This document shows positions 1 through 19,860 of a DNA stretch of 19,860 nucleotides, in pieces. The notes beneath the pieces were generated by a model. That model was not told where the DNA came from, searched no databases, and was given only the letters and a program-made list of their open reading frames with translations. A program made the position numbers and the translations under genes. Position 1 is the first letter of the stretch; every line of letters begins with the position of its first letter. Location: IMG/VR virus record IMGVR_UViG_2778261687_000001, positions 1 to 19,860 of that record. One strand, 5' to 3'. This stretch comes from a virus. Lineage: Duplodnaviria; Heunggongvirae; Uroviricota; Caudoviricetes.

Positions 1-356
1 ACCATGACAGCGTTCTGTACTTCAGGGGCCAGCTTGTCAAAAGTGACGTTCATCGGATCGGATTCAGTCTCAACCGGTACAAAGGAAGCAGACTCCTCAT
101 CCCAGCGGTTTTCCTGCATATATTCAGCATCCCAGGAATCGAGGGCAGGGCGGGGTATACCGGGTTTATCCTCGCAAACAAGAAATTTATAAGCGCAGTC
201 CTGAGCAGCCGGATAATGTTCCAGGAATTGCCAGTGAAATTTTGCGCGGGCGCGACGTTCATCACCGGCTTCAATGGCAGTGGCTACAGCGACTGCACCT
301 TCTTCCTTTATTGCCTGTTCGTCCGGAATGGCGGCGCAAATAAAGACTTTACTCAT
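1..356 (-). CDS. Hypothetical early-left protein, N-terminal 118 aa only (gene runs past the window start); YdfE-like by position
   Basis: Minus-strand ATG at 356-354 with GAGGT Shine-Dalgarno 8 nt upstream; open frame to window edge, translation MSKVFICAAIPDEQAIKEEG... Identity is by synteny only (downstream of the YdfD-like and DicB-like genes). Confidence 0.5.
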   Translation of the reverse strand, partial: MSKVFICAAIPDEQAIKEEGAVAVATAIEAGDERRARAKFHWQFLEHYPAAQDCAYKFLVCEDKPGIPRPALDSWDAEYMQENRWDEESASFVPVETESDPMNVTFDKLAPEVQNAVM

Positions 357-448
357 TTTGTTTTACCTCATTACAGATTTAAGGGTGAACAAATCCCTGC
401 CATTGCTGGCATATAAAAATGAAACCGGATATTTATTACGGTGCTGGT

Positions 449-640
449 TTAAAGCCCTGCCGGGACTTCGTTATTATCCATGCGAATAACTTTATCGACC
501 GGATAACAGTTACCGGGAATTTTCTGTTCCGCTGCGGCAGCCATGCATTCTTTCATTGAGCCGTATACGCCAGTAACCATGTCAACCGGTTCACCGGAAA
601 CAAGAAAAACCGTCAGAACAAGTGCAAATGTGGTATTCAT
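449..640 (-). CDS. ydfD: YdfD-like small membrane (lysis-associated) protein, 63 aa
   Basis: Internal ATG of track ORF 449..694 with AGGA upstream; translation MNTTFALVLTVFLVSGEPVD... has an N-terminal hydrophobic helix; start overlaps the upstream gene stop (ATGA); matches my recollection of Qin YdfD in length and sequence. Confidence 0.6.
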   Translation of the reverse strand: MNTTFALVLTVFLVSGEPVDMVTGVYGSMKECMAAAAEQKIPGNCYPVDKVIRMDNNEVPAGL

Positions 641-825
641 TGCCAGTATCCTTTTTGAGTCGGACGTAAACGGGCCAGCATAGAAAGAATGCAAATTTGA
701 TTTAATAACTCCCGTTCGTGTTTTCTCTTATTAATGGCATCTTCAGTAAATACAGGGTTACTGATTCTGACACCAATTTCAAAACAACCTTCAGACGTAT
801 TAACGTTTGGTAATAACGTTTCCAT
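637..825 (-). CDS. dicB: Cell-division inhibitor DicB-like protein, 62 aa
   Basis: Track ORF translation METLLPNVNTSEGCFEIGVRISNPVFTEDAINKRKHERELLNQICILSMLARLRPTQKGYWQ closely resembles DicB as I recall it (62 aa); sits just downstream of a DicF-like terminator hairpin, as in the Qin dicB operon. Confidence 0.7.
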   Translation of the reverse strand: METLLPNVNTSEGCFEIGVRISNPVFTEDAINKRKHERELLNQICILSMLARLRPTQKGYWQ

Positions 826-1002
826 TATCGCGTCCTCAACAATGAATTTTGTGATGCGGTGCCTGGTGCCTCCAGGTGACGTTAACCAGTTAACAATTAA
901 CGCCGGATACAGGGAAACCCATAAACACCCGATACGGGGGAACTAATCGCTTTTTAACTGTTCCGCGTGCGCTCAGCCGCATTCACCGCATCACAAAATT
1001 CA

Positions 1003-1066
1003 CTTTAAAAAGGGCGGACATCAGCCAGCAATGAAACTGATGCCGCCAAAGGTACAAATCAACATG
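1003..1066 (-). ncRNA. dicF: DicF-like small RNA (3' intrinsic terminator plus upstream UUUGGCGG...AUCAGUUU core)
   Basis: Minus-strand RNA reads ...UUGAUUUGUACCUUUGGCGGCAUCAGUUUCAUUGCUGGCUGAUGUCCGCCCUUUUU; stem GGCGGCAUCAG/CUGAUG-CCGCC followed by U5. It shares the UUUGGCGG, AUCAGUUU and GCCGCCCUUUUU-type blocks with E. coli DicF as I recall it and sits immediately upstream of dicB. Ends are approximate. Confidence 0.4.
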
Positions 1067-1361
1067 GAGTGTTGTAGCGGGGTTGTCACTCAGGCGTATG
1101 GTCAACCTGACAACCCGGTGCTACCAGTGGGGGTAAGGATAACCCCGCCATACTTACCGCCGCGCCATTTCGCGGAGTGCCACAACCGGAAGCGCACGGT
1201 CGAAGATACCGGCGACACGCAACAGAGGGAGAAATGACTTCGCCGTGCGCTTTCGTGTTGTGTGCCTGCTTTTAACCACGTCAGGCGAGGTGGTTCCTGT
1301 CATTCCCCAACGACAAGAAATCTGTATAATCTGGATATCCCCAACGATCCAAGGAAATCAT

Positions 1362-1508
1362 ATGACAGAGCAAAGAGCACAAGCAGGTGGTGGCAATTCG
1401 ACACATAAAACAGTCTGGGATCACATACCAGAGAAAAACATTCGACCAAAACCATCTCCAGCTCCTTCGGAGGAGAGGGGGAACAGCAACAACCAAACAA
1501 GCAGGTGA
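1362..1508 (+). CDS. Possible small leader ORF (48 aa, hydrophilic, low complexity)
   Basis: ATG at 1362 with AAGGAAA Shine-Dalgarno; extended -10 TGTATAAT at about 1322-1331. Composition (MTEQRAQAGGGNSTHK...) is not convincingly protein-like, so this may be an untranslated leader. Confidence 0.25.
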   Translation: MTEQRAQAGGGNSTHKTVWDHIPEKNIRPKPSPAPSEERGNSNNQTSR

Positions 1509-1514
1509 TGATGT

Positions 1515-1961
1515 ATGGACCGGGATGATATTCTTGACAGAATTTTATATGGCTATTTTCTTGAGCAACTATTTTCTGTAGCGACTGGTCGTCTCGATAA
1601 ACTTCTCTCAGTGGTGAGTATTATCCTCGGTTCATCTGTCATTGGCGGATTCATTCCGGAAATTTCTGGCGTTTTTATTGTTGTGATCGCAACCGTCCAA
1701 ACGATTTATGGATTCGGACAAAAGTCAGGTAACGCCATGAGAAAATCCGCAGAATATTTGCAGCTTTTTGATGATGCAGAAAAATATTCTGATTCTGAAT
1801 TGAAAATGCAGTTAAAAATTCTGGAAAAAACGGATGATCATATTTGGTCATCACTTAAAGATATTGCGATCTTAAAAACACAGATCAAAATAGGCGTTTC
1901 CATCGAACAACAAGAGAAGCTGCCCACAAAATCTAAATTGATGCGATTTCTTTGTGGTTAG
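1515..1961 (+). CDS. Two-TM inner-membrane protein, 148 aa; candidate superinfection-exclusion (SieB-like topology) protein
   Basis: Track ORF with AGGTGA Shine-Dalgarno 7 nt upstream; two adjacent hydrophobic helices (about residues 30-67) then an 80-aa charged C-terminal region; opposite strand to the surrounding early-left genes, at the position where Rac carries sieB. Family assignment is topology and synteny only. Confidence 0.55.
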   Translation: MDRDDILDRILYGYFLEQLFSVATGRLDKLLSVVSIILGSSVIGGFIPEISGVFIVVIATVQTIYGFGQKSGNAMRKSAEYLQLFDDAEKYSDSELKMQLKILEKTDDHIWSSLKDIAILKTQIKIGVSIEQQEKLPTKSKLMRFLCG

Positions 1962-2039
1962 GAATATCCAGAATGTTAAAGAGCATGCCGGAGATTTATC
2001 CGTGTCCGGCGCATGTTCTCCACCTCACCCGTGGAGAAC

Positions 2040-2426
2040 TTAATGATTAATTGATATTTTATAGTTGGCTTCAACTTTCCCATCTGAAGTGGGATGCTTT
2101 AAATCACAGGAATTAATGTTGCACTCAGTAAAATGGTTTTTAAGGGGTTCTATTCGAATCCCTTTCTTTTCCATCAACAAACCAAACCCCTTGTTAATGA
2201 TATCCATTAATTCCAGGAAGTATTTTTCAGAGGAATCATGCTTATCAGAGTGCTGCTTCTCTTCGTACAACCCGATAAAGGCACGGCGCACGTTACCGGA
2301 TATATTATCTATGGTTTCTTTTTCTACGGTACTCAGGTCAAGAGTCGCCAATTGAGAACGAACTATATTCGCTGCCATTTCCTGGAAAGGTGTTGGTAAA
2401 TCTTTAAATTCCATCGTTAATCTCAT
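2040..2426 (-). CDS. Hypothetical protein, 128 aa, AT-rich
   Basis: Track ORF; start ATG overlaps the stop of the upstream YdfA-like gene (TGATG); convergent with 1515..1961 and separated from it by two hairpins (1988-2011 and 2014-2035). No family recognised. Confidence 0.55.
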   Translation of the reverse strand: MRLTMEFKDLPTPFQEMAANIVRSQLATLDLSTVEKETIDNISGNVRRAFIGLYEEKQHSDKHDSSEKYFLELMDIINKGFGLLMEKKGIRIEPLKNHFTECNINSCDLKHPTSDGKVEANYKISINH

Positions 2427-2578
2427 CAGTCAGTATTTCTGGATAACCAGCGACGCGCGCCAGCTTCGGTTTTAAACGTTTTGCTTTTGGTATACGTCAT
2501 CGCGGTGAACGTACCGTCCTGGTTGGGAAACACGCCACATACCAGAGATTCGCTGTTGCCAAGATCGATAGTATCCAT
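2426..2578 (-). CDS. Small YdfA/YdaF-like (DUF1391-type) protein, 50 aa
   Basis: Internal ATG at 2578-2576 with GAGGT 4 nt upstream; translation MDTIDLGNSESLVCGVFPNQDGTFTAMTYTKSKTFKTEAGARRWLSRNTD; first gene of the leftward operon next to an operator-like repeat region. Confidence 0.5.
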   Translation of the reverse strand: MDTIDLGNSESLVCGVFPNQDGTFTAMTYTKSKTFKTEAGARRWLSRNTD

Positions 2579-2754
2579 GTTGACCTCATTTCCCCTTAAC
2601 GCCGGGGTAGCGGAACAAAAACCTGCTGCATAGTTAAAGTTGAACCCTGCCGTCATGTTCTTACGCCTCGGGCTGGCTACTTAACCCCTGACCACTGCCT
2701 GGTAACTCGAAGTATTGCCCGGCGTTCTGTGGGGCGGGGTGGGTTGGTAAAACA

Positions 2755-2805
2755 AAGGATGCACTTTAAAAGTTATTATGTCAACACTTATAAAGTTAGT
2801 TTTAT
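2755..2805 (-). promoter_or_regulatory. OL-like operator/promoter region for the leftward early operon
   Basis: Minus strand reads ...TATAAGTGTTGACATAATAACTTTTAAAGTG...: a consensus TTGACA plus AAGTGTTGA and TTTAAAGTG motifs that recur in the repressor-cro intergenic region. No good -10 was identified, so promoter placement is tentative. Confidence 0.3.
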
Positions 2806-2859
2806 GTGTTCAAAAAACGCCTTGATGTGAAGCGGTTCTGCGAAAAGAAGGGGGAGGTA

Positions 2860-3141
2860 TTATCTGGGAAACTGACGTCTGGCGTGTACGATACTTACAA
2901 TTTCAATACTTGAAGCGGCCACACGGTAAAGAATTATATAATTAGGGTGGGCCACAATCTCACGCAAGCCAGGCACTCTGTCGCTTGGTGGATATAAATA
3001 CGGATGCTCAGATAACGGCAGTACGCAAGCTCTTAAGCGCTTCCACAAACGTTCTGCCGCATCTATGTCGAAACGTGCAATATAACTAGTTATATCATCT
3101 AGGTCGGCATCTGCGCTTTCAAGCCATAACACGGGTAACAT
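2860..3141 (-). CDS. RelE/ParE-family type II toxin, 93 aa
   Basis: Track ORF MLPVLWLESADADLDDITSYIARFDIDAAERLW...HARRQFPR; typical size and residue pattern of the ParE/RelE superfamily; lies 3 bp downstream of a small antitoxin-sized gene. Confidence 0.65.
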   Translation of the reverse strand: MLPVLWLESADADLDDITSYIARFDIDAAERLWKRLRACVLPLSEHPYLYPPSDRVPGLREIVAHPNYIILYRVAASSIEIVSIVHARRQFPR

Positions 3142-3144
3142 TTA

Positions 3145-3333
3145 CTACTTGCTCCGTTCCTTGCGTATTTTAGCAAAGCGTTCTGCCATTCTGCGCTCAA
3201 CCTCGTCATGGGGAATTGCTGGGCGCGGATCTGCAAGGCTTGCTGCTACTTTCGCACGCAGCCATTCGTTGTAACTGTTTTCTTGTTCAATGGTTTCAAA
3301 CTCAGAAACCATTGGTGAAAGGGCTGTATTCAT
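3145..3333 (-). CDS. Putative type II antitoxin, 62 aa
   Basis: Internal ATG at 3333-3331 with GAGGT 7 nt upstream; small charged protein (MNTALSPMVSEFETIEQENSYNEWLRAKVAASLADPRPAIPHDEVERRMAERFAKIRKERSK) immediately upstream of the ParE-like toxin and immediately downstream of the repressor gene. Confidence 0.5.
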   Translation of the reverse strand: MNTALSPMVSEFETIEQENSYNEWLRAKVAASLADPRPAIPHDEVERRMAERFAKIRKERSK

Positions 3334-3362
3334 TACATACCTCATCTTATGGATGATATAGA

Positions 3363-3770
3363 TTATGCTCGATGCCCTTTCTGGGCTGCGAGCCACCGTG
3401 CGACAGTGCGATCCATTGACTCTTTTTTGTCTTTCATATCTTTTAACATTTGTTCTTGATCTTCCTCTGGAAATGCTCCGAAAGTTTGAAGCAATTCTCT
3501 TTGTCTGGGACCTATTTTCATTGTATCAGGCACTACGACTTGCTCTTCTTCGCTTGGCGGTAACATAAACCAATACGGAGGAAAGCCCGTCACTTCGGAA
3601 AGCTTATCGAGATTAGCCGTTGATGGGCTTGTGATGCCATGAACCCACTTTTGGACCGATTGTTGGGCAACACCAATCCTGCGGGCTAGTTCTGCCTGCT
3701 TAAGTCCTGTTTTTTCCAGCACCAATTTTATTCGGTACGTGGTTATTTCAAGGGTAGTCATTCGCTTCAT
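3363..3770 (-). CDS. Prophage repressor, DicA/RacR-like HTH-XRE, 135 aa
   Basis: N-terminal HTH (LKQAELARRIGVAQQSVQKWVHG) and a C-terminal region resembling DicA as I recall it (RELLQTFGAFPEEDQEQ...); divergent from the Cro-like gene across operator repeats. Confidence 0.8.
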   Translation of the reverse strand: MKRMTTLEITTYRIKLVLEKTGLKQAELARRIGVAQQSVQKWVHGITSPSTANLDKLSEVTGFPPYWFMLPPSEEEQVVVPDTMKIGPRQRELLQTFGAFPEEDQEQMLKDMKDKKESMDRTVARWLAAQKGHRA

Positions 3771-3877
3771 GCATTCATTTTACATAAAAAAAGTGTAACT
3801 AGTACAAACAGCTTTAAAGTGTTGATTGTGTAACTTTAAAAGTGTATAAATCATGGCAATTCATTGGAGTTAACGAT
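3771..3877. promoter_or_regulatory. OR-like divergent promoter/operator region between repressor and cro-like gene
   Basis: Rightward promoter TTGATT (3822-3827), 17-bp spacer, TATAAA (3845-3850); repeated GTGTAAC and AAGTGT motifs (3791-3799, 3816-3835, 3839-3850); a TAAAAT -10 on the minus strand about 6 nt before the repressor ATG. Confidence 0.5.
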
Positions 3878-4156
3878 ATGCATGAATGTTTAAAAAATAA
3901 AATTCATCAAAAAGGGTTATCCCAAGCAGGTATTGCTCGTTTGATTGGATTACCGCAGCAGGTTGTGTCCCGATGGGCTAATGGGCATCAGATTCCTGCA
4001 TCAAGGGTTTTGCAACTATGCGAGATTATGGAGTGGACGGTTACCCCCCACGAACTTCGTCCTGACATTTACCCCAACCCAACAGACGGGCTGCCTTGTG
4101 GAAATAAGTGTATGGCGAATGAATCACTGGCGGTGAACAATGAAAATCACCCCTGA
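3878..4156 (+). CDS. Cro/YdaS-like HTH regulator, 92 aa
   Basis: ATG at 3878 with GGAG 8 nt upstream; HTH (LSQAGIARLIGLPQQVVSRWANG) and the TPHELRPDIYP motif typical of YdaS-family Cro-like proteins. Confidence 0.7.
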   Translation: MHECLKNKIHQKGLSQAGIARLIGLPQQVVSRWANGHQIPASRVLQLCEIMEWTVTPHELRPDIYPNPTDGLPCGNKCMANESLAVNNENHP

Positions 4157-4661
4157 ACAGGTTTGTGAGGCTCTGGATGCCTGGGTATGCCGACCAGGAA
4201 TGACACAGGAGCAGGCGACGATATTAATCACGGAAGCATTCTGGGCTCTGAAAGAACGCCCGAACATCGATGTTCAACGCGTCACGTTTGATGATGGCGC
4301 GGTTGATCAACGGGCGCTGGGCGTTAACCGGGTGAAGATTTTCGAACGCTGGAAAACTATCGACACCAGGGATAAGCGTGAAAAATTCACGGCGCTGATT
4401 CCGGCAATTATGGAGGCTATCCGGATCAGTGATTTCAGGTTGTATTGTGAAATTACTGACGGAAAAAGCATTACGTACATGATCGCCGGGTTAAACAAAG
4501 AATATGGCGAAGTGGTGGAGTCCGGGCTGCTTTTTGCGGATCCAGCCATTGTGGAGCGTGAAGCTGACGAGCTAATAGAAAAAGCCATAGCTTTCAAGCG
4601 TGCGTATCGTCAGCAATATCAACAAAAAGCCGGATGGAATTATGAGTCTCCTTTTTGCTGA
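4140..4661 (+). CDS. YdaT-family protein (CII-position regulator/toxin-like), 173 aa
   Basis: Track ORF overlapping the cro-like stop; position and size match ydaT-type genes that follow ydaS in Rac-like prophages. Confidence 0.6.
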   Translation: MKITPEQVCEALDAWVCRPGMTQEQATILITEAFWALKERPNIDVQRVTFDDGAVDQRALGVNRVKIFERWKTIDTRDKREKFTALIPAIMEAIRISDFRLYCEITDGKSITYMIAGLNKEYGEVVESGLLFADPAIVEREADELIEKAIAFKRAYRQQYQQKAGWNYESPFC

Positions 4662-5607
4662 ACGCCCGCTGGTTATAAACACGCAGCTGGCGATGAAAAT
4701 TGGTCTGAACGAAGCCATCGTGTTGCAGCAGCTGCATTACTGGTTGAGAGATACCAGTTCCGGCATGGAATGTGATGGTGTTCGCTGGATTTATAACACA
4801 ACTGAACAATGGCTGGAACAGTTCCCGTTCTGGTCAGAGTCAACGTTAAAACGCGCATTTGCAAGTCTGAAAACGCTGGGGCTTTTGCGTTGCGAAAAGC
4901 TCAATAAATCAAAGCGCGATATGACTAATTTCTACACGATCAATTACGAGAGCAAGCTTTTAGATGATGGCAAATTGAGCGAATCCATCAGGTCAAAATG
5001 CGCCGCTCCATCAGGTCAAAATGACACGATGGAAGAGGCCAAAATGACACACCCCATTGGTTCAAAACGACCCAATGTCATCGGGTCAAAATGGCCCGAT
5101 GATCCTACAGAGATTACTACAGAGATTACTACAGAGAATAAAAACACTTCTTGTCCGGAAGCTTCGCAACCGGACGAGGAGACGGCTGAACAGGATTTTT
5201 TAACCCGACATCCTGACGCGGTTGTGTTCAGTGCGAAAAAACGCCAGTGGGGCAGCCAGGAAGATTTGACGTGTGCGCAGTGGATCTGGGGGCGAATCGT
5301 GAGTCTTTACGAACAGGCTGCCAGCGATGATGGCGAGATCACGCGACCGAAAGAACCCAACTGGACCGCATGGGCCAATGACGTGCGCACAATGCGGATG
5401 CTGGATGGCAGAACTCACAGGCAAATTTGCGAAATGTTCAGTCGGGTACAACGGGATCCATTCTGGGTAAAAAACGTCATGAGCCCGTCAAAGCTTCGCG
5501 AAAAATGGGATGAGCTGGTTATTCGTCTGGGACGTTCGCCTGTACAGCGTTGTGTGAATCACATTTCTGAACCGGACACCGAAATTCCGCCGGGATTCAG
5601 GGGGTAA
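4642..5607 (+). CDS. Replication initiator (lambda O-like replisome organiser), about 321 aa
   Basis: N-terminal winged-helix-like region (ERPLVINTQLAMKIGLNEAIVLQQLHYWL); direct DNA repeats (iterons) inside the coding sequence; followed by the DnaC-like loader. Start may instead be GTG at 4600. Confidence 0.75.
   Translation: MSLLFAERPLVINTQLAMKIGLNEAIVLQQLHYWLRDTSSGMECDGVRWIYNTTEQWLEQFPFWSESTLKRAFASLKTLGLLRCEKLNKSKRDMTNFYTINYESKLLDDGKLSESIRSKCAAPSGQNDTMEEAKMTHPIGSKRPNVIGSKWPDDPTEITTEITTENKNTSCPEASQPDEETAEQDFLTRHPDAVVFSAKKRQWGSQEDLTCAQWIWGRIVSLYEQAASDDGEITRPKEPNWTAWANDVRTMRMLDGRTHRQICEMFSRVQRDPFWVKNVMSPSKLREKWDELVIRLGRSPVQRCVNHISEPDTEIPPGFRG
4986..5136. repeat. Origin-like iteron array (CATCAGGTCAAAATG-type repeats, about 22-bp period) followed by tandem 12-bp ACAGAGATTACT repeats
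   Basis: Exact CATCAGGTCAAAATG at 4986-5000 and 5008-5022, variant CATCGGGTCAAAATG at 5078-5092 and degenerate copies between; ACAGAGATTACT tandem at 5107-5136; all inside the O-like gene, as for lambda ori. Confidence 0.55.
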
Positions 5608-5613
5608 CGGGTT

Positions 5614-6360
5614 ATGAAAAATATTGCTGCAGGTGGTGTTCTTGAACGCATCCGTAAGCTGGCCCCGCAGCATGTAACCGCACCGTACCGGACAGTGGAC
5701 GAGTGGAGAGAGTGGCAGCTTGCAGAAGGGCGAAAGCGTAGTGAGGAAATTAACCGCCAGAATCGCCAGATCCGGGTGGAGAAAATTATGAAGCGTTCCG
5801 GTATCCAACTGTTGCACCAGAAGTGTTCGTTTGCGAATTACCTGGTGAAGAACGATGGCCAACGCCACGCGCTGAGCCAGGCAAAATCCATCGCGGAAGA
5901 AATGATGACCGGATGCACAAATTTCGTGTTCAGCGGTAAGCCGGGTACCGGAAAGAATCATCTGGCAGCAGCCATTGGCAACCATCTTCTGGCGAAAGGT
6001 CGCAGCGTGATTGTGGTGACGGTGGCGGATGTGATGCTGGCGTTACACGGCAACTACGACAACAAAAACTCGGGCGAAAAGTTTTTACAGGGGTTGTGTG
6101 AAGTTGACCTGCTTGTCCTGGATGAAATTGGTATGCAGCGGGATACGCGTAACGAACAGGTCACACTGAACCAGATAGTCGATCGCAGAACGGCCTCGAT
6201 GCACAGCGTCGGGATGCTGACGAACCTGAACCATACGGCAATGAATACGCTGCTTGGTGAGCGCGTGATGGACCGCATGACCATGAACGGTGGTCGCTGG
6301 GTGAATTTTAACTGGGAGAGCTGGCGTTCAAATGTCAGTCATTTAAGGGTTGTGAAGTAA
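5614..6360 (+). CDS. DnaC-like helicase loader (IstB-type AAA+ ATPase; lambda P functional analogue)
   Basis: Walker A GKPGTGKNHLAAAIG and Walker B DLLVLDEIG; immediately follows the initiator gene. Confidence 0.85.
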   Translation: MKNIAAGGVLERIRKLAPQHVTAPYRTVDEWREWQLAEGRKRSEEINRQNRQIRVEKIMKRSGIQLLHQKCSFANYLVKNDGQRHALSQAKSIAEEMMTGCTNFVFSGKPGTGKNHLAAAIGNHLLAKGRSVIVVTVADVMLALHGNYDNKNSGEKFLQGLCEVDLLVLDEIGMQRDTRNEQVTLNQIVDRRTASMHSVGMLTNLNHTAMNTLLGERVMDRMTMNGGRWVNFNWESWRSNVSHLRVVK

Positions 6361-6374
6361 TTTCAGGAGGACTC

Positions 6375-6767
6375 ATGGCAAGCGTTTTTACACCTGAACA
6401 GCGGGAAGAACTGAAGGCACGAATTATCGGGCTGGTACACAGGAACAAACGCATGACGATGTCGCAACTGGAGAGTGCAACGGGGGCTGGCTGGCATACG
6501 GTCAGACGTTGTCTTGTGGATGTGGTTGCTTGTGGTGATTTGTACATATCCGGTAAATACGGTGTTTTTGTATCAGAACAGGCGTATCAGGCGTGGTGTA
6601 AAACTCCGAAGAAAGCTGACCCGGCACTGGTCCGGAAGTTACCTGATGGTGAAATCCGTCGCTACGACAGAGACATGAACATAATTTGCCGGGAATGCCG
6701 TAACAGCGAATCAATGCAACGTGTACTGGCGTTCTATCGGGGTAATTTTCAGGAGGTGATGGAGTGA
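6375..6767 (+). CDS. Hypothetical nin-region protein, 130 aa
   Basis: Track ORF with AGGAGG Shine-Dalgarno; no family recognised. Confidence 0.6.
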   Translation: MASVFTPEQREELKARIIGLVHRNKRMTMSQLESATGAGWHTVRRCLVDVVACGDLYISGKYGVFVSEQAYQAWCKTPKKADPALVRKLPDGEIRRYDRDMNIICRECRNSESMQRVLAFYRGNFQEVME

Positions 6768-7060
6768 GGGTGAGGGTTTATATCGCCGGTCCGATGACCG
6801 GGTATAAAAATTTCAACCGTGAGGCGTTCCACAAGGCAGAAGAGGAACTGAAACGGGAGGGGCATACAGTCTTAAATCCGGCAGTACTTCCGGACGGACT
6901 GACTCAGTTGCAGTACATGGATATCTGCATGGCGATGATACGTTGCGTGGATGCGATTTACATGCTGAATGGCTGGCAGCGGTCGGCGGGTGCCAGGGCA
7001 GAACTGGCACTGGCGGAGAAGCTGGGGCATGCGGTTATTTTACAGAAGGCGATGCAGTGA
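6764..7060 (+). CDS. DUF4406-like (nucleoside 2-deoxyribosyltransferase-like fold) protein, 98 aa
   Basis: Translation VRVYIAGPMTGYKNFNREAF...VLNP...YMLNGWQRSAGARAELALA fits the DUF4406 pattern as I know it; GTG start with GGAGG upstream. Confidence 0.6.
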   Translation: MRVRVYIAGPMTGYKNFNREAFHKAEEELKREGHTVLNPAVLPDGLTQLQYMDICMAMIRCVDAIYMLNGWQRSAGARAELALAEKLGHAVILQKAMQ

Positions 7061-7062
7061 AT

Positions 7063-7239
7063 ATGTTCTGGATAATCAAAATTGAGCTGTTTGTTATTGT
7101 ATTCCTGATCAGTGCATTTCTGGCAGCGGCTTTTATTATCTGGGAAAATCCTTTTCGACATATCAGTCCACTGTTTGCAATCAGGGTGTTAATAGCATCG
7201 GTTGTAGTGGTGTGGTTAATGTGTTTTGCATTATTTTAA
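7063..7239 (+). CDS. Small hydrophobic protein, 58 aa (two predicted TM helices)
   Basis: ATG at 7063 just after the upstream stop; strongly hydrophobic translation MFWIIKIELFVIVFLISAFLAAAFIIW...; weak Shine-Dalgarno. Confidence 0.35.
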   Translation: MFWIIKIELFVIVFLISAFLAAAFIIWENPFRHISPLFAIRVLIASVVVVWLMCFALF

Positions 7240-7252
7240 TGGAGTTAATGTT

Positions 7253-15390: not shown

Positions 15391-15405
15391 ACAGGAGAAA
15401 AACGT

Positions 15406-15795
15406 ATGTCTGAACCCTTGTCCGGTTCCGGCACGGCTGCGGCGCTCGGCGGGGCGACGGTATTCGGGCTGTTTACCGGGACGGATTTCGGGATTGTGTT
15501 TGGCGCGTTTGCCGGGGCGTTGTTTGTGGCCACGATGCCACAGGTGATTTCTGTCTGGCGTGTGGCGGCGCATTTTCTGGTGTCGTTCATTGTTGGCGTG
15601 CTGGGGGCGGATGTCCTTGCGTCCTGGCTGGTCGAAAAATTGAATCTCCACAGCACATCTCTCGACGCGCTTTGTGCGGTACTGGTATCGGTGGTGTCGG
15701 TGAAGATTCTCTCATTCATCCACCAGCAGGATATCGCATCGCTGGTATCCGGGCTGTTCTCCCGTCTGCGGGGTGGAGGCGGTAATGTTAAGTAA
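15406..15795 (+). CDS. Putative holin (three predicted TM helices), 129 aa
   Basis: AGGAG 9 nt upstream; three hydrophobic helices; first gene of a cassette ending in the endolysin. Confidence 0.55.
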   Translation: MSEPLSGSGTAAALGGATVFGLFTGTDFGIVFGAFAGALFVATMPQVISVWRVAAHFLVSFIVGVLGADVLASWLVEKLNLHSTSLDALCAVLVSVVSVKILSFIHQQDIASLVSGLFSRLRGGGGNVK

Positions 15796-16063
15796 CCTTC
15801 CCGGATTACTGAATGTGGTGTTAAGCTCGGTTATCGTGCTGACGCTCTTTTTTTATCGTCGCGGTGAGTCGAGATATAAACCGCTGATGTCGTGGCTGGC
15901 CTGGCTGTTGATGCTGCTTTATGCTTTTGCACCGCTTTGTTATCTGTGTGGTCGCTTCCCACCAGGTAACTGGCTGGTTGTCCTGATTAACTTGGTGTTC
16001 TGCGTGCTGGTGATACGAGCACGCGGGAACGTATCAAAAATCCTTGTATTACGAAGGCGCTGA
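15785..16063 (+). CDS. Second lysis-cassette membrane protein (three predicted TM helices), 92 aa
   Basis: ATG at 15785 with GGAGG 5 nt upstream, overlapping the holin 3' end by 11 nt; stop lies 2 nt before the endolysin start. Confidence 0.5.
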   Translation: MLSNLPGLLNVVLSSVIVLTLFFYRRGESRYKPLMSWLAWLLMLLYAFAPLCYLCGRFPPGNWLVVLINLVFCVLVIRARGNVSKILVLRRR

Positions 16064-16064
16064 T

Positions 16065-16610
16065 ATGAAGTCGAAAGATGAAATTTTTGACGAAATTCTG
16101 GGAAAAGAGGGCGGTTACATCAATCATCCGGATGATAAAGGTGGACCGACCAGATGGGGCATTACTGAAAAAGTTGCCCGCGCACACGGTTATCATGGCG
16201 ATATGCGTGACCTGACGCGTGAGCAGGCGCTGGAAATACTCGAGGCGGACTACTGGTACGGACCACGATTCGACCTGGTTGCGAACCTGTCTCCGGATAT
16301 TGCCTCAGAGTTGTGCGATACGGGCGTGAACATGGGGCCAACTGTGGCGTCCAGAATGCTTCAACGCTGGCTGAACGTTTTCAACCTGCGCGGGAAACTC
16401 TATCCGGATATGGATGCTGATGGACGCATCGGGCCGCGTACTCTTAATGCATTACGGGCATATCTGAAAAATCGCAGCAGGGATGGTGAACTGGTACTGG
16501 TGAAAGCCCTGAACTGTACGCAGGGCGAGCGTTATCTGGAGCTGGCAGAGAAACGCGAGGCCAATGAGTCGTTTGTCTATGGCTGGATGAAAGAGCGCGT
16601 GGCTGTGTGA
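16065..16610 (+). CDS. Endolysin, GH108-type N-terminal domain with C-terminal peptidoglycan-binding domain, 181 aa
   Basis: Hallmark EGGYINHPDDKGGPTRWGIT motif of the GH108 family; follows two small membrane proteins. Confidence 0.8.
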   Translation: MKSKDEIFDEILGKEGGYINHPDDKGGPTRWGITEKVARAHGYHGDMRDLTREQALEILEADYWYGPRFDLVANLSPDIASELCDTGVNMGPTVASRMLQRWLNVFNLRGKLYPDMDADGRIGPRTLNALRAYLKNRSRDGELVLVKALNCTQGERYLELAEKREANESFVYGWMKERVAV

Positions 16611-16699
16611 TAGCATTTAAAAATGATCATTATCAATGAGTTAAGTGTATGTTGCGTTTAATTTCTCCTGGGCGTACGCAACCAAAAGGAGAAATACGT

Positions 16700-16906
16700 A
16701 TGAAGTACTATGTTCACACTCTTACAGATAATCAGAACGATCATGAGGTTCATACAGAAACATGTTTTCGACTTCCTGATGCAAACAATCGTAAAGAGCT
16801 TGGAGAGTTTAGCTCATGTGAGCCGGCAGTGAAGGCCGCAAAAAATCTGGGTTACACGAGGGTGAATGGATGTTACTGGTGCTGCAGAGATTGCCATACA
16901 TCCTGA
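16700..16906 (+). CDS. Small Cys-rich protein, 68 aa
   Basis: AAGGAG 8 nt upstream; C-terminal GCYWCCRDCH cluster; followed by a strong terminator. Confidence 0.5.
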   Translation: MKYYVHTLTDNQNDHEVHTETCFRLPDANNRKELGEFSSCEPAVKAAKNLGYTRVNGCYWCCRDCHTS

Positions 16907-16930
16907 CATAAGGTGTGAATAATTCTGACA

Positions 16931-16958
16931 AAGGTCGCTTCGGCGGCCTTTTTTATTA
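16931..16958 (+). terminator. Intrinsic terminator (UUCG tetraloop hairpin plus T-run)
   Basis: AAGGTCGC-TTCG-GCGGCCTT then TTTTTATT. Confidence 0.6.
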
Positions 16959-16985
16959 CTCAAAAACGAAAGAACGGAGGTACGT

Positions 16986-17267
16986 ATGTACGCACTCAAG
17001 AAAATCACGGTAACAGAAGACGGTCGTCATGTTGAGGAAGTGCATGTCCTGGGGGATATGTACCGCCTGGAGTTCTATCCGCGTAACACTCATCTTGCAG
17101 CGAAGATTGAGTATTGCCGGGACGGGAATATTCCGTGCATTCCTGTAGAAAAAGAGGATGAAGCCTACATCATCACACTGAACGGTGACACGGCGCGTTG
17201 TATCTGTCGTGGCGACAGTGAAGCCCGGAATGAAATAGCAAGATGTCGCGCCCATACAGATAAATAA
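16986..17267 (+). CDS. Hypothetical protein, 93 aa
   Basis: GGAGGT Shine-Dalgarno; soluble, Cys-containing; followed by a terminator-like hairpin. Confidence 0.55.
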   Translation: MYALKKITVTEDGRHVEEVHVLGDMYRLEFYPRNTHLAAKIEYCRDGNIPCIPVEKEDEAYIITLNGDTARCICRGDSEARNEIARCRAHTDK

Positions 17268-17273
17268 AAAGCA

Positions 17274-17312
17274 AAAACCCCGGCTGCGGGAACAGTTCGG
17301 GGTTTTCTGTTT
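17274..17312 (+). terminator. Terminator-like hairpin with T-rich tail
   Basis: AAAACCCCG ... CGGGGTTTT followed by CTGTTTC. Confidence 0.45.
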
Positions 17313-17338
17313 CTGACCTTGAGTAAGCAAGGGAGAAC

Positions 17339-17521
17339 ATGGAGAAGTATAAACGAATTCTGTTTAGGTTGACTATGAAAAACGGCCTTGAATTGAAAGC
17401 GCCTGTAACTGATGACATCAGCAGAGCGGTGGCTTTTGCCATTAAGTGGGTGGCTGTCGGTATCGCTGTGTCTCCGATTCTGTATGGGATGGCAAAATTG
17501 ATCATTGCTGTGAAATCGTAA
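17339..17521 (+). CDS. Small protein with C-terminal TM helix, 60 aa
   Basis: GGGAG upstream; hydrophobic C-terminal segment AFAIKWVAVGIAVSPILYGMAKLIIAV. Confidence 0.4.
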   Translation: MEKYKRILFRLTMKNGLELKAPVTDDISRAVAFAIKWVAVGIAVSPILYGMAKLIIAVKS

Positions 17522-17538
17522 GTGGGGCAGGGGTAAAT

Positions 17539-17673
17539 ATGTCAGATAGCATTATAAAACTGGCGCGAATTCTCTGTGTGGCTGTTGGCCTTTCATTTTC
17601 AGCAATGTTGGTTGCCATTTTCATTTCCACCGCCTGGCGAGTATTGAGCTTATCCGGATTGATTGGTGGATAG
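17539..17673 (+). CDS. Small TM peptide, 44 aa
   Basis: ATG at 17539, 17 nt after the previous stop; single hydrophobic helix. Confidence 0.3.
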   Translation: MSDSIIKLARILCVAVGLSFSAMLVAIFISTAWRVLSLSGLIGG

Positions 17674-17677
17674 TGAG

Positions 17678-17860
17678 ATGAAGCGAAAACACTGGACACA
17701 CAGAATGCCGCGAACGGCGGCGAAATGGGCACTGGTAGCGATACTGGTGCCTTTTTTCCTGGTGGGATGCGTCAGCCTGGATAAGGCGCGCCAGCTTTTC
17801 GATACGGCTTCTCAGGTCTGCGAAATTGTCGACGGTGTTCGACAGTGTCTGCAGAGCTGA
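17678..17860 (+). CDS. Small predicted lipoprotein, 60 aa (lipobox LVGC)
   Basis: Basic N-region, hydrophobic core WALVAILVPFFLV, lipobox LVG-C; short Cys-containing mature part. Confidence 0.45.
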   Translation: MKRKHWTHRMPRTAAKWALVAILVPFFLVGCVSLDKARQLFDTASQVCEIVDGVRQCLQS

Positions 17861-18033
17861 TCGCCCGTAAGAGCAGAATATTTCGCTGAAAAATGAAGGA
17901 TGCGCCAGCGTCCAGAAAGCATGAAATTCTGCTGTGTGTGCCAATTTGTCTTATACATTCTGAATCTTGCCGCATCAGGATGAACTTTGAACAACAGCCC
18001 GGGCGGCAAGGGGCATTTTTATCCGGAGGGGAT

Positions 18034-18258
18034 ATGAAGAGATTACTGGTAACCGTAAAGCCCTTTAACGGAACGATTCCATTCAGGGTTTTGCAGCGTG
18101 GACGTGTTCTGGTTAAGGATATCTTCAGTGGTAAATGCACGGAATGTTATTCCCGGACATATGAAGTGGATGCCACGGATGAAGAAATTTCTGTTGAATG
18201 TGATCTTAACGCGAATATGGCGGAGATTGTAACAGCCACGTTGTTACCTGTTTCATGA
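18034..18258 (+). CDS. Hypothetical small protein, 74 aa
   Basis: Internal ATG with GGAGGGG upstream inside track ORF 17893..18258. Confidence 0.4.
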   Translation: MKRLLVTVKPFNGTIPFRVLQRGRVLVKDIFSGKCTECYSRTYEVDATDEEISVECDLNANMAEIVTATLLPVS

Positions 18259-18298
18259 ATGACATAGAATGTCTCCGGGTACCCAAAAGGAGAAAACT

Positions 18299-18514
18299 AT
18301 GTTTGTAGAAAATAACCTGAAGGCCGATCCTGATAATCAGGGATGGGTTCTGGGTTGGGCTGTAGTACGTGACAAACCCTGGCATCTGGTCGGTATTTAT
18401 GCAACGGAGGATGGCGCAAAGTCTAAACGCTCTGAATTGAATGGGGAGTATGAAGTTCGTTATGGTTCCCATCGTTTAGGTAGTGATGATTTTATGTCTG
18501 TCGGACTTAGCTAA
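18299..18514 (+). CDS. Hypothetical small protein, 71 aa
   Basis: AAAAGGAG Shine-Dalgarno; followed by a strong terminator. Confidence 0.5.
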   Translation: MFVENNLKADPDNQGWVLGWAVVRDKPWHLVGIYATEDGAKSKRSELNGEYEVRYGSHRLGSDDFMSVGLS

Positions 18515-18526
18515 CTGGCTGTGATG

Positions 18527-18555
18527 CCTGTTTGTAGCCCCGCAAATGCGGGGCT
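18527..18555 (+). terminator. Intrinsic terminator
   Basis: AGCCCCGC-aaat-GCGGGGCT then TTTTTTAT. Confidence 0.65.
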
Positions 18556-18570
18556 TTTTTATATCTGGAG

Positions 18571-18969
18571 ATGATGATGGAAAAAACAGAAAACAAACCT
18601 GTTGCAATTGGTGCTGATGCTGCTCCGTTTAAGTTTGAGTTGTCTCAACTGGTGGAGATGCGCATCAGTGATGAATGGGGTGAGGTTAAAGCCCGCGCGC
18701 AGTATGCGGATGGCGAAAACCAGTACTTGATCCACTACAAGGCTGCAGATGGTCGCGCCACGACGCAGTGGTTTGGTGAGTCAATGCTGGAAGCAACAGA
18801 AGATGATCGCCATCCGGGCTGTCCGGTATTTGCCGGTATGAAATTACCGGAAGGGGCAGTTGAACTGCAGCCGGGTGAGGTGTTCGTAATGTCAGAAGTC
18901 ATTGATGGTAAACCGCAGTATTCGCGTATTGAAATGAATAGTAAGAGTGCTCGCCTGATTCGTGAGTAA
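18571..18969 (+). CDS. Hypothetical protein, 132 aa
   Basis: GGAG upstream of a triple ATG; soluble acidic protein; a 13-bp stem-loop follows the stop. Confidence 0.6.
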   Translation: MMMEKTENKPVAIGADAAPFKFELSQLVEMRISDEWGEVKARAQYADGENQYLIHYKAADGRATTQWFGESMLEATEDDRHPGCPVFAGMKLPEGAVELQPGEVFVMSEVIDGKPQYSRIEMNSKSARLIRE

Positions 18970-19016
18970 CAGGCATTACAGCAGCCCTTCACTCTAAGGG
19001 GCTGCTGTAATGTGAG

Positions 19017-19054
19017 AAATAAAAAACCGGTCCAGCTACACAGAACCGGCCGGC
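19017..19054 (-). terminator. Minus-strand intrinsic terminator
   Basis: Minus strand reads CCGGTTCTGTGTAGCTGGACCGG then TTTTTTATTTC. Confidence 0.45.
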
Positions 19055-19140
19055 GAAGACCGCCAATACCACCCATGCATTGATGCAACATACTAATGAC
19101 AATAGCCGCTATTGATGTAAATGCAATGTTATGCATCGAC

Positions 19141-19184
19141 GAAAATAAAAAACCGGCAGGGGAAATCCATTGAAGACTTGCCGG
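19141..19184 (-). terminator. Minus-strand intrinsic terminator (second copy of the AAATAAAAAACCGG-flanked hairpin)
   Basis: Minus strand reads CCGGCAAG...CTGCCGG then TTTTTTATTTTC. Confidence 0.45.
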
Positions 19185-19329
19185 TGGCAAAAGTTGCCAA
19201 TGCTTTTATAACCGTAGTCACAGAGTTACGAAGTGCAACACCGAATGCTGCTGGTATATGGATGAATGGCGTTTCAATGATTTTCATCAATTTATTCATC
19301 AGCAATGGTGATAATCACTCTCATTTGTG

Positions 19330-19545
19330 CGGGTCCTTCCGGTGGGGGGGCCTGCCACGGGGCGGCAGCGTCGCGGAAAACGGCTAGTTTTTGCATTTTC
19401 ATGGTGGCGGCAGCATGTGATGTAATTTATTGATAATTAAAAGCTATTTCCATTTTCACCTGTACAATATTTTTTTCTCCCTGTCATTAGACCAGTTTGC
19501 AATTCATTGAAATATATAAATAAACCTGATTTTCACCTGCCAGAT
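19330..19545. other. Lambda-like cos region: cosN-like core (about 19356-19376) and two ATTTTCACCTG direct repeats (19452-19462, 19529-19539) as candidate terS-binding sites
   Basis: GGGTCCTTCCGGTG ... ACGGGGCGGCAGCGTCGCGG resembles the lambda right end and cohesive-end region (ACGGGTCCTTTCCGGTG ... GGGCGGCGACCTCGCGGG) as I recall it; it lies about 200 bp upstream of the terS start, as cosN does relative to Nu1. Confidence 0.5.
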
Positions 19546-19555
19546 GGAGTTGCTT

Positions 19556-19860
19556 ATGTCAAATGTGAGCGGGATCGGTGATGCTTATTACTGGAGTGTT
19601 TTTAAAATCGCCGAGGCCTTTGGGCTTCACCGGGACACAGTAAAAAAACGGCTCCTCGCGGCCAACACTCCTGTGGCTGCGACTGTCAGGGGGAACCCCG
19701 TTTACGCCCTGCAGCATGTCGGGCCTGCCCTGTTTAGTGTGAAGCATGAGGCAGCAGACTCTGTTCATGATCCATCCCGTATGGGTAAGCGGCTCACCAG
19801 AACCGTATTGATATTTACTGAGAGCTCAGATCAACTTTCCAGGGCAACAGATCGCGTACC
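19556..19860 (+). CDS. Terminase small subunit (Nu1-like), N-terminal 101 aa; gene runs past the window end
   Basis: GGAG 7 nt upstream; open to the window edge; N-terminal HTH-like segment (YYWSVFKIAEAFGLHRDTVKKRL) and GNPVYAL motif parallel lambda Nu1; sits just downstream of the cos-like sequence. Confidence 0.5.
   Translation, partial: MSNVSGIGDAYYWSVFKIAEAFGLHRDTVKKRLLAANTPVAATVRGNPVYALQHVGPALFSVKHEAADSVHDPSRMGKRLTRTVLIFTESSDQLSRATDRV

Follow-up and report, generated by a model that had tools for sequence, protein, structure and literature searches.

A lambda-family cos site of known type, with the Gifsy-1 12-mer and a cdtI/Tritos-type packaging module, in a lambdoid prophage of Escherichia coli

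The heptamer GGGTCCT of phage lambda, which we take to be cosQ, the packaging-termination signal, was reportedly assigned as such by Wieczorek and Feiss in 2001, and a dedicated survey of the natural history of cosN is said to have been provided by Vahanian et al. in 2017. Among lambda-like phages the 7-bp cosQ is highly conserved, as are the cohesive end's left half and the flanking CG dinucleotides, and differences at base pairs 7 to 12 of the cohesive end are common and tolerated, these bases not being under selection (Feiss et al. 2015, PMC4669245). The deviations from lambda are at positions 9 and 12 in N15 and phiD326 and at positions 8, 9, and 11 in Gifsy-1, and packaging specificity resides in cosB and TerS (PMC4669245). 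The 16-bp cosN of lambda has 10 symmetric positions (PMC9026076), and an AT-rich I2 segment is located at about bp 18 to 50 in lambda-like phages (PMC4856287). The R3 sequence extends from bp 50 to 65 in lambda and from bp 48 to 60 in N15. Among the phages relevant to this study, Tritos is a siphovirus from E. coli LF82 that is active and forms plaques (PMC9928086), and the cos site of mEp213/LLS has been called putative (PMC12315714).

We analyzed a DNA stretch of 19,860 nucleotides (IMG/VR record IMGVR_UViG_2778261687_000001, positions 1 to 19,860), referred to here as the window, whose 3′ part corresponds to a lambdoid-prophage late region with holins, a GH108 endolysin, small ORFs, the cos site, and terS. 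An earlier note on this DNA had proposed a lambda-like cos site between 19330 and 19545. The sequences it quoted were found at their places in the window and could be aligned base for base with cosQ and cosN of lambda, and cosQ, cosN, and cosB are followed by terS, the site marking the position of a virion end by homology. In its layout, which resembles that of lambda, cosQ (GGGTCCT) and cosN are separated by a 22-nt spacer, and cosN is followed by an I2-like segment containing A and T tracts, an IHF site, cosB repeats, and terS. The locus is a lambda-family cos site of a known type in an E. coli lambdoid prophage, and judging from its homologies, the region from 19331 to 19540 very probably represents the cos site of a cdtI/Tritos-group prophage. 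Assignment to a PICI or another satellite was rejected, as terS follows the site, an rpp-like gene is lacking, and the site is contiguous with the phage lysis genes.

Window 19331-19376 is composed of GGGTCCT, TCCGGTGGGGGGGCCTGCCACG, GGGCGGCAGCGT, and CGCGG. The cosQ-like heptamer (19331-19337, plus strand) is the same as lambda's and occupies the same place in the alignment; the nick would lie 22 nt past it, compared to 23 nt in lambda. By alignment to the lambda ends, cosN, formed by CG, 12 bp, and CG, was assigned to 19358-19373, from which we infer a top-strand nick at 19359/19360 and a bottom-strand nick at 19371/19372. A check against the joined ends of lambda showed identity in GGGTCCT, in GGGCGG, and in the flanking CG on both sides; in the sequence ACG/GGGCGGCAGCGT/CGCGG at 19357-19376, ACG, the left half GGGCGG of the overhang, and CGCGG are all as in lambda. 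Two-fold symmetry extends over 10 of the 16 bp of cosN, the same count as in lambda, although at partly different positions. Polymorphism was counted over 55 unique haplotypes of the window's cos type. None of the seven cosQ columns was variable, and in cosN variation was confined to two of 16 columns, corresponding to overhang positions 7 and 12. The cosQ-cosN spacer (19338-19357, plus strand) is hypervariable, with 14 of 20 columns variable, and is one base shorter than its lambda counterpart and otherwise dissimilar to it. When the window is viewed together with loci L293 to L372, the spacer appears as a hypervariable stretch between an invariant cosQ and an invariant cosN.

The segment from cos to terS was 96 to 97% identical to the corresponding segments of phages HannyBb, Tritos, and cdtI. 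In GenBank, the entries for cdtI (AB285204) and Tritos (OV696610) start exactly at the equivalent of window 19360, with GGGCGGGAGCGT, and end in ...CCTGCCACG, indicating that the depositors placed the genome ends at the lambda-equivalent nicks. The Tritos paper (PMC9928086) uses the term "cos" once and mentions neither cohesive ends nor PhageTerm. Tritos and cdtI share the cosB/terS module of the window at 96 to 97% identity, but terS is intact there and their overhang has a G at position 7 instead of the C present in the window. In E. coli RM13752, an intact relative, cosQ, cosN, and the 12-mer are as in the window and are followed by the gene for a 175-amino-acid TerS with a DUF1441 domain, the gene for a 699-amino-acid large terminase (GpA_ATPase, E = 5e-81; GpA_nuclease, E = 1.8e-86), and a portal gene. 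The window itself ends inside an insertion sequence, so that terL lies outside it and the gpA-type terL is known from RM13752. A TerL of this type is common to lambda and the relatives of the window, and the enzyme expected to cut a window-type cos site is thus of the lambda gpA type. The virion-derived assembly mEp460_4F5 was unusable as evidence for the genome ends, as it breaks not at the nick but 5 nt upstream of it and, compared to its relatives, shows a gap of 2 nt. In phage mEp460_ev081 (LR597641.1), the last ~300 nt contain the cosB stretch starting with GGCTAGTTTTTGAAATTTCATCCG twice in tandem; either cosB is truly duplicated there or the genome ends were misassembled.

The predicted 12-nt 5′ cohesive end GGGCGGCAGCGT (19360-19371, plus strand), assigned by alignment to lambda, is identical to the lambda sequence GGGCGGCGACCT in nine of 12 bases and differs at positions 8, 9, and 11, in agreement with the previous observation that the overhang deviates from that of lambda. 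This variant is already known, since the 12-mer is that of the Salmonella phage Gifsy-1, and variation of this sort has been documented. Direct reading of the Gifsy-1 sequence gave ...TTACG/GGGCGGCAGCGT/CGCAGG, and Gifsy-1 also shares the cosQ sequence GGGTCCT with the window; its right flank is CGCAGG rather than CGCGG, and unlike the window it has a lambda-like cosB with an R sequence of the CCGTTCTTCTT type and a Nu1-family TerS 58% identical to that of lambda. The mEp213/LLS phages agree with the window in the cosQ-cosN framework, in a GGCTAGTTTTT block after cosN, and in a DUF1441-family TerS (~41% identical), but their inferred overhang GGGCGGCGCGCT is unlike that of the window in its right half, their cosB repeats are CATCATCAT-like rather than TCACCTG-like, and their terS starts at about +118 to +130, counted from window 19360 as +1.

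Overhang variants were tabulated by scanning IMG/VR for ACGGGGCGG-N6-CGCGG. The lambda 12-mer was found 51 times, GGGCGGGAGCGT 12 times, GGGCGGCGCGCT eight times, and GGGCGGCAGCGG six times, and more than a dozen other right-half variants were present in a clear cos context. A literal search of papers for the variant 12-mers yielded only a mention for mEp213/LLS. Matches to the 18-mer ACGGGGCGGCAGCGTCGC in a scan of genome contigs came mostly from unrelated taxa, largely of high GC content, and were uninformative on its distribution; after filtering for an upstream cosQ-like motif, one Citrobacter locus with a clear lambda-type cos context was retained.

The reading that the phage packages its DNA by a headful (pac) mechanism, the cos-like sequence being fortuitous, is opposed by a zero chance expectation for the composite pattern GGGTCCT-N17-21-ACGGGGCGG-N6-CGCGG. 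This pattern matched the window once, at 19331-19376 on the plus strand, and occurred in none of 200 dinucleotide-preserving shuffles. The gpA-type TerL of the intact relatives and the invariance of cosQ and cosN over many prophages with variable flanks also argue against a pac mechanism, for which no support was found, and we consider it extremely improbable. A different question is whether the changed central bases of the overhang by themselves define a new packaging or annealing specificity, as the earlier note had suggested with regard to packaging. Ends with three mismatches in 12 bases would anneal poorly to lambda ends, and an approximately four-fold loss of yield was measured for a 2-base mismatch (Feiss 2015, PMC4669245). 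However, lambda TerL is equally good on the cosN sites of lambda and N15, because the cut is positioned by cosB-bound TerS, and the absence of selection on bases 7 to 12 likewise speaks against this reading (PMC4669245).

The distribution of the 12-mer also speaks against this reading, as the 12-mer is joined to at least four cosB/terS types. GGGCGGCAGCGT occurs with a Gifsy-1-type cosB and a Nu1-family TerS in about 50 IMG/VR contigs, with an N15-like cosB in loci L181 and L189, with a phage-21-like cosB and TerS in E. coli strain R1, and with the DUF1441/cdtI-type module in the window and in E. coli RM13752. Conversely, of 80 IMG/VR loci encoding a TerS with at least 99% identity to the TerS family of the window, 78 carried GGGCGGGAGCGT and one carried GGGCGGCAGCGG, and the 12-mer of the window was found in none of the 80. 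As one TerS type is combined with several overhangs and one overhang with several TerS types, specificity cannot be deduced from the overhang, and we regard a specificity encoded in its central bases as very unlikely. The packaging specificity of this prophage nevertheless probably differs from that of lambda, because cosB and the DUF1441-type TerS are different.

The terS gene was assigned an ATG start at 19556 (+197), preceded by GGAG at 19546-19549; this is the RefSeq start of the intact relative. In lambda, terS starts at +191. The cdtI record uses an alternative upstream start, an in-frame ATG at 19544, and the region limit of 19545 in the earlier note falls inside the terS leader or this alternative start. 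A 5′-terminal terS fragment of 76 codons (19556-19784, plus strand) is present in the window, where homology to intact terS ends at 19784. Pfam DUF1441 (PF07278) was matched by this fragment with E = 9.6e-9 and by the intact 175-amino-acid protein of RM13752 with E = 1.6e-44. In the Pfam search DUF1441 was the only family found for both proteins, and neither matched Phage_Nu1 (PF07471), the family of lambda TerS. A BLASTP comparison of the TerS with Nu1 was not significant (E = 4.6). When a profile of DUF1441-type TerS proteins adjoining lambda-type cos sites was compared with a Nu1-family profile by hhalign, the two aligned over 141 columns with a probability of 85% and E = 6.5e-6, with the N-terminal helix-turn-helix and wing in register. 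This profile alignment suggests that DUF1441 TerS is a remote full-length homologue of lambda Nu1, and the window-type TerS probably works like Nu1 even though it lies outside that Pfam family.

The remaining part of the window (19785-19860), starting with GTAAGCGG, constitutes the terminal 76 bp of an IS66-family (ISCro1-like) element, the junction being defined by alignment to RM13752. More than 6000 matches to this stretch were obtained in 1793 genomes of E. coli, both chromosomal and plasmid-borne, and among the matches listed it sits at IS66-family/ISCro1 transposase (tnpC) features. In E. coli CFSAN018748, the match lies at the end of an IS66-family element. A separate ISCro1 insertion is present in that strain in another, Nu1-type terS. 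By this comparison the terS gene of the window is insertionally split after codon 76, at the junction 19784/19785. With its terS split by an IS66-family element, the prophage is probably unable to package itself; its cos site looks intact and could therefore be used in trans.

The cosB sequence of the window is unrelated to that of lambda. In both phages, cosN is followed by a stretch containing A and T tracts, and an IHF site stands ahead of the repeats. The I2-like segment (19377-19409, +18 to +50, plus strand) lies between cosN and cosB. Its GGCTAGTTTTT or ATTTyCAT block is found downstream of many lambda-type cosN sites with differing cosB. An IHF consensus site, TATCAATAAATTA, is located on the minus strand at 19423-19435 (+64 to +76) and would be the equivalent of I1. 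It is a perfect match to WATCAANNNNTTR, of which only three matches were found on both strands of the whole window, and none of its 13 columns was variable in the 55 haplotypes. In locus L072, a relative whose TerS is 58% identical, an IHF consensus match with different bases, AATCAAATGGTTA, is present at the same coordinate, +64. The position of the predicted IHF site, between the first and second TerS sites, would fit a complex cosB of the lambda/21/Monarch type.

Two direct copies of ATTTTCACCTG precede terS, as the earlier note had described. The distal copy is located at 19452-19462 (+93 to +103, plus strand), in an R2-like position, and the proximal copy at 19529-19539 (+170 to +180, plus strand), in an R1-like position just 5′ of the terS ribosome-binding site; in our own reading of the lambda sequence, R2 and R1 are found at about +109 and +155. 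Since these clear repeats are direct and do not form an inverted R3/R2 pair, the arrangement of cosB is unlike that of lambda. Compared to the three related R sequences of a lambda-type set, in which R2 has the opposite orientation to R3 and R1, only the two exact copies at +93 and +170 are present, the third being represented by a partial copy or by an inverted candidate with four mismatches. The partial copy, TTTGCATTTTCA, was recovered in a repeat search (family D2) in direct orientation at 19390-19401 (+31 to +42), within the I2-like segment. From the positions of R3 in lambda and N15, an equivalent TerS anchor would be expected at about 19400-19422 (+41 to +63, plus strand), an assignment that is uncertain. 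An inverted R3 at +54 to +63 (GCATGTGATG) had been suggested by L072, in which the sequence from +55 to +64 is CAGGTGAGAT and matches the inverted repeat with two mismatches, compared to four mismatches in the window equivalent. This candidate was demoted, because no other part of cosB is as polymorphic among phages with nearly identical TerS, five of the 10 columns from +54 to +63 being variable.

The earlier note had interpreted the two repeats as TerS-binding sites, which we consider plausible and partly supported by the conservation pattern. The proximal copy was almost invariant, with one of its 11 columns variable in a single one of the 55 haplotypes, and TTTTCACCTG is found exactly at +170 in L072, within one base of its coordinate in the window (+171), despite diverged flanks; degenerate copies of the repeat are also present in L072 at +55 (inverted), +98, and +121. 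The distal copy, in contrast, was variable in five of 11 columns, with variants including TTTTCAGCTG and TTTTTACCTG, among phages that share a TerS of at least 99% identity. This variability would fit a different reading, in which the repeats are not TerS sites, the proximal copy being conserved as part of the terS leader for translation initiation, the distal copy being incidental, and the anchor being provided by the block from +35 to +53. The terS leader beside the proximal copy (+181 to +199) is likewise invariant (0 of 19 columns), the conserved block (two of 19 columns variable) overlaps the R3 positions of lambda and N15, and the repeats are direct whereas R3 and R2 of lambda are inverted around I1 (PMC4669245). 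Against this reading stands the fact that an exact 11-mer occurs twice within 190 bp, at a distance of 77 bp, and nowhere else in 19.86 kb, and the copies in L072 also speak against it. In addition, mutations in R2 and R1 of lambda are milder than the same change in R3 (PMC9026076). We regard the repeats as candidate TerS sites and consider the alternative somewhat less likely than not. In our reading, the IHF site, the block from +35 to +53, and the proximal repeat appear to be under constraint, the distal repeat not strongly so. As both the distal repeat and the stretch from +54 to +63 are polymorphic, the R-site assignments are weak, and the sequence alone would not allow assignment of the R3-equivalent anchor.

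It had also been claimed that the site fixes the end of the virion genome within the window. The location of cos holds by homology, but the claim was overstated in view of the split terS, as this copy probably makes no virions alone; a fair wording would be that the site would be the virion end in a functional relative. A stronger version of this view takes the locus for a stranded relic whose cos never becomes a virion end in the source strain. This is compatible with our preferred explanation and rivals only the claim of a fixed genome end. The end of intact-terS homology at 19784, followed directly by the IS66-family end, speaks for it, as does the fact that the 76-codon fragment is without most of the Nu1-aligned region (residues 12 to 161 of the intact protein) and presumably lacks the C-terminal functions. 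On the other hand, intact relatives have a matching cosQ, cosN, IHF site, and proximal repeat, so that a co-resident phage with a cdtI-type terminase could still cut the site in trans, and the remainder of the prophage lies beyond the window. Weighing these points, we give the relic interpretation a little less than an even chance.

In a functional relative of this cdtI/Tritos-type prophage, the DUF1441 TerS would bind cosB with the help of bending by IHF and would position the gpA-type large terminase to nick the two strands of cosN 12 bp apart. The staggered nicks would generate the 5′ overhangs GGGCGGCAGCGT, and cosQ would end packaging at the next cos. The deviations within the overhang's right half (positions 8, 9, and 11) represent a tolerated natural variant, specificity being provided by cosB and TerS. 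For the copy in the window, packaging would at most be possible through a co-resident phage whose TerS has the same specificity.

Compared to RM13752, cdtI, and Tritos, about 11 substitutions cluster at window 19380-19452 (+21 to +93), whereas the flanking DNA is nearly identical. A megablast search with a 140-nt cos segment in complete E. coli genomes gave no full-length match of at least 99% identity, the best being 95%, which indicates that the exact cosB allele of the window is absent from that set of genomes. A cosB identical to that of the window was present in one IMG/VR locus, the one among the 80 above that carries the overhang GGGCGGCAGCGG.

A mosaic structure was observed in E. coli strain R1 (locus L374, 21-type), which matches window 15000-19377 with 100% identity, a stretch that runs from the lysis genes over cosQ and cosN to +18. 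From about +19 onward the two sequences diverge completely, a phage-21-like cosB and a Nu1-family terS replacing the DUF1441 module. The joint between strain R1 and the window at 19377/19378 (+18/+19) is sharp and lies just past cosN. The comparison shows that overhang and packaging module assort independently. As identical cosQ-cosN-overhang sequences are joined to unrelated cosB/terS modules only a few bases from cosN, cos itself may be a preferred recombination joint, and a possible route to such a joint is the mismatch-tolerant annealing of heterologous cohesive ends.

Several other features of the window were recorded. Five tandem copies of a ~23-bp repeat (core GGTCAAAATG) are located at 4986-5101 inside an ORF of 335 amino acids (4600-5607), which precedes an ORF for a DnaC/IstB-like ATPase (5614-6360); these repeats look like lambda-style origin iterons within an O-like initiator gene. 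They are followed at 5105-5140 by three tandem 12-bp copies of CTACAGAGATTA. On the minus strand, two of the origin-like repeats (4989-5022) carry ATTTTGACCTG, which is one mismatch away from the cosB repeat ATTTTCACCTG. This resemblance is probably a coincidence, since two adjacent repeats count as one event. A 14-nt direct repeat, AAATAAAAAACCGG, at 19017 and 19143 (region 19017-19156, spacing 126 bp) flanks a segment missing from cdtI. A minus-strand terminator-like hairpin coincides with at least its first copy, and its second copy is overlapped by a small minus-strand ORF (19129-19287), which in the RefSeq annotation of relatives has 52 amino acids and is labelled hypothetical. A tRNA-Gly gene with the anticodon TCC (14856-14928) is located between a DNA methyltransferase gene (13592-14638) and the holins; Rfam and ARAGORN gave no other hit in the window.

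The significance of the locus is mostly one of annotation, as the cos site gives the conventional zero point of the prophage genome and places the prophage, with its packaging module of the cdtI/Tritos type, among the lambda-like cos packagers. The overhang is to be annotated as the Gifsy-1 12-mer and not as a specificity determinant, and specificity should be read from cosB and TerS. In the literature searched, no characterization of the TerS-binding sites of DUF1441-type terminases was found. The IHF site, the block from +35 to +53, and the proximal repeat provide candidate TerS-recognition elements for terminases of this type. At the most speculative level, the window may reflect a third cosB architecture for lambda-like terminases and, separately, the use of cos as a preferred recombination joint, a combination that we rate as rather unlikely. 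In such a cdtI/Tritos-type cosB, the DUF1441 TerS may recognize TCACCTG-type direct repeats that lie downstream of a conserved IHF bend, which may contrast with the inverted R3/R2 pair of lambda and the single R3 of N15.
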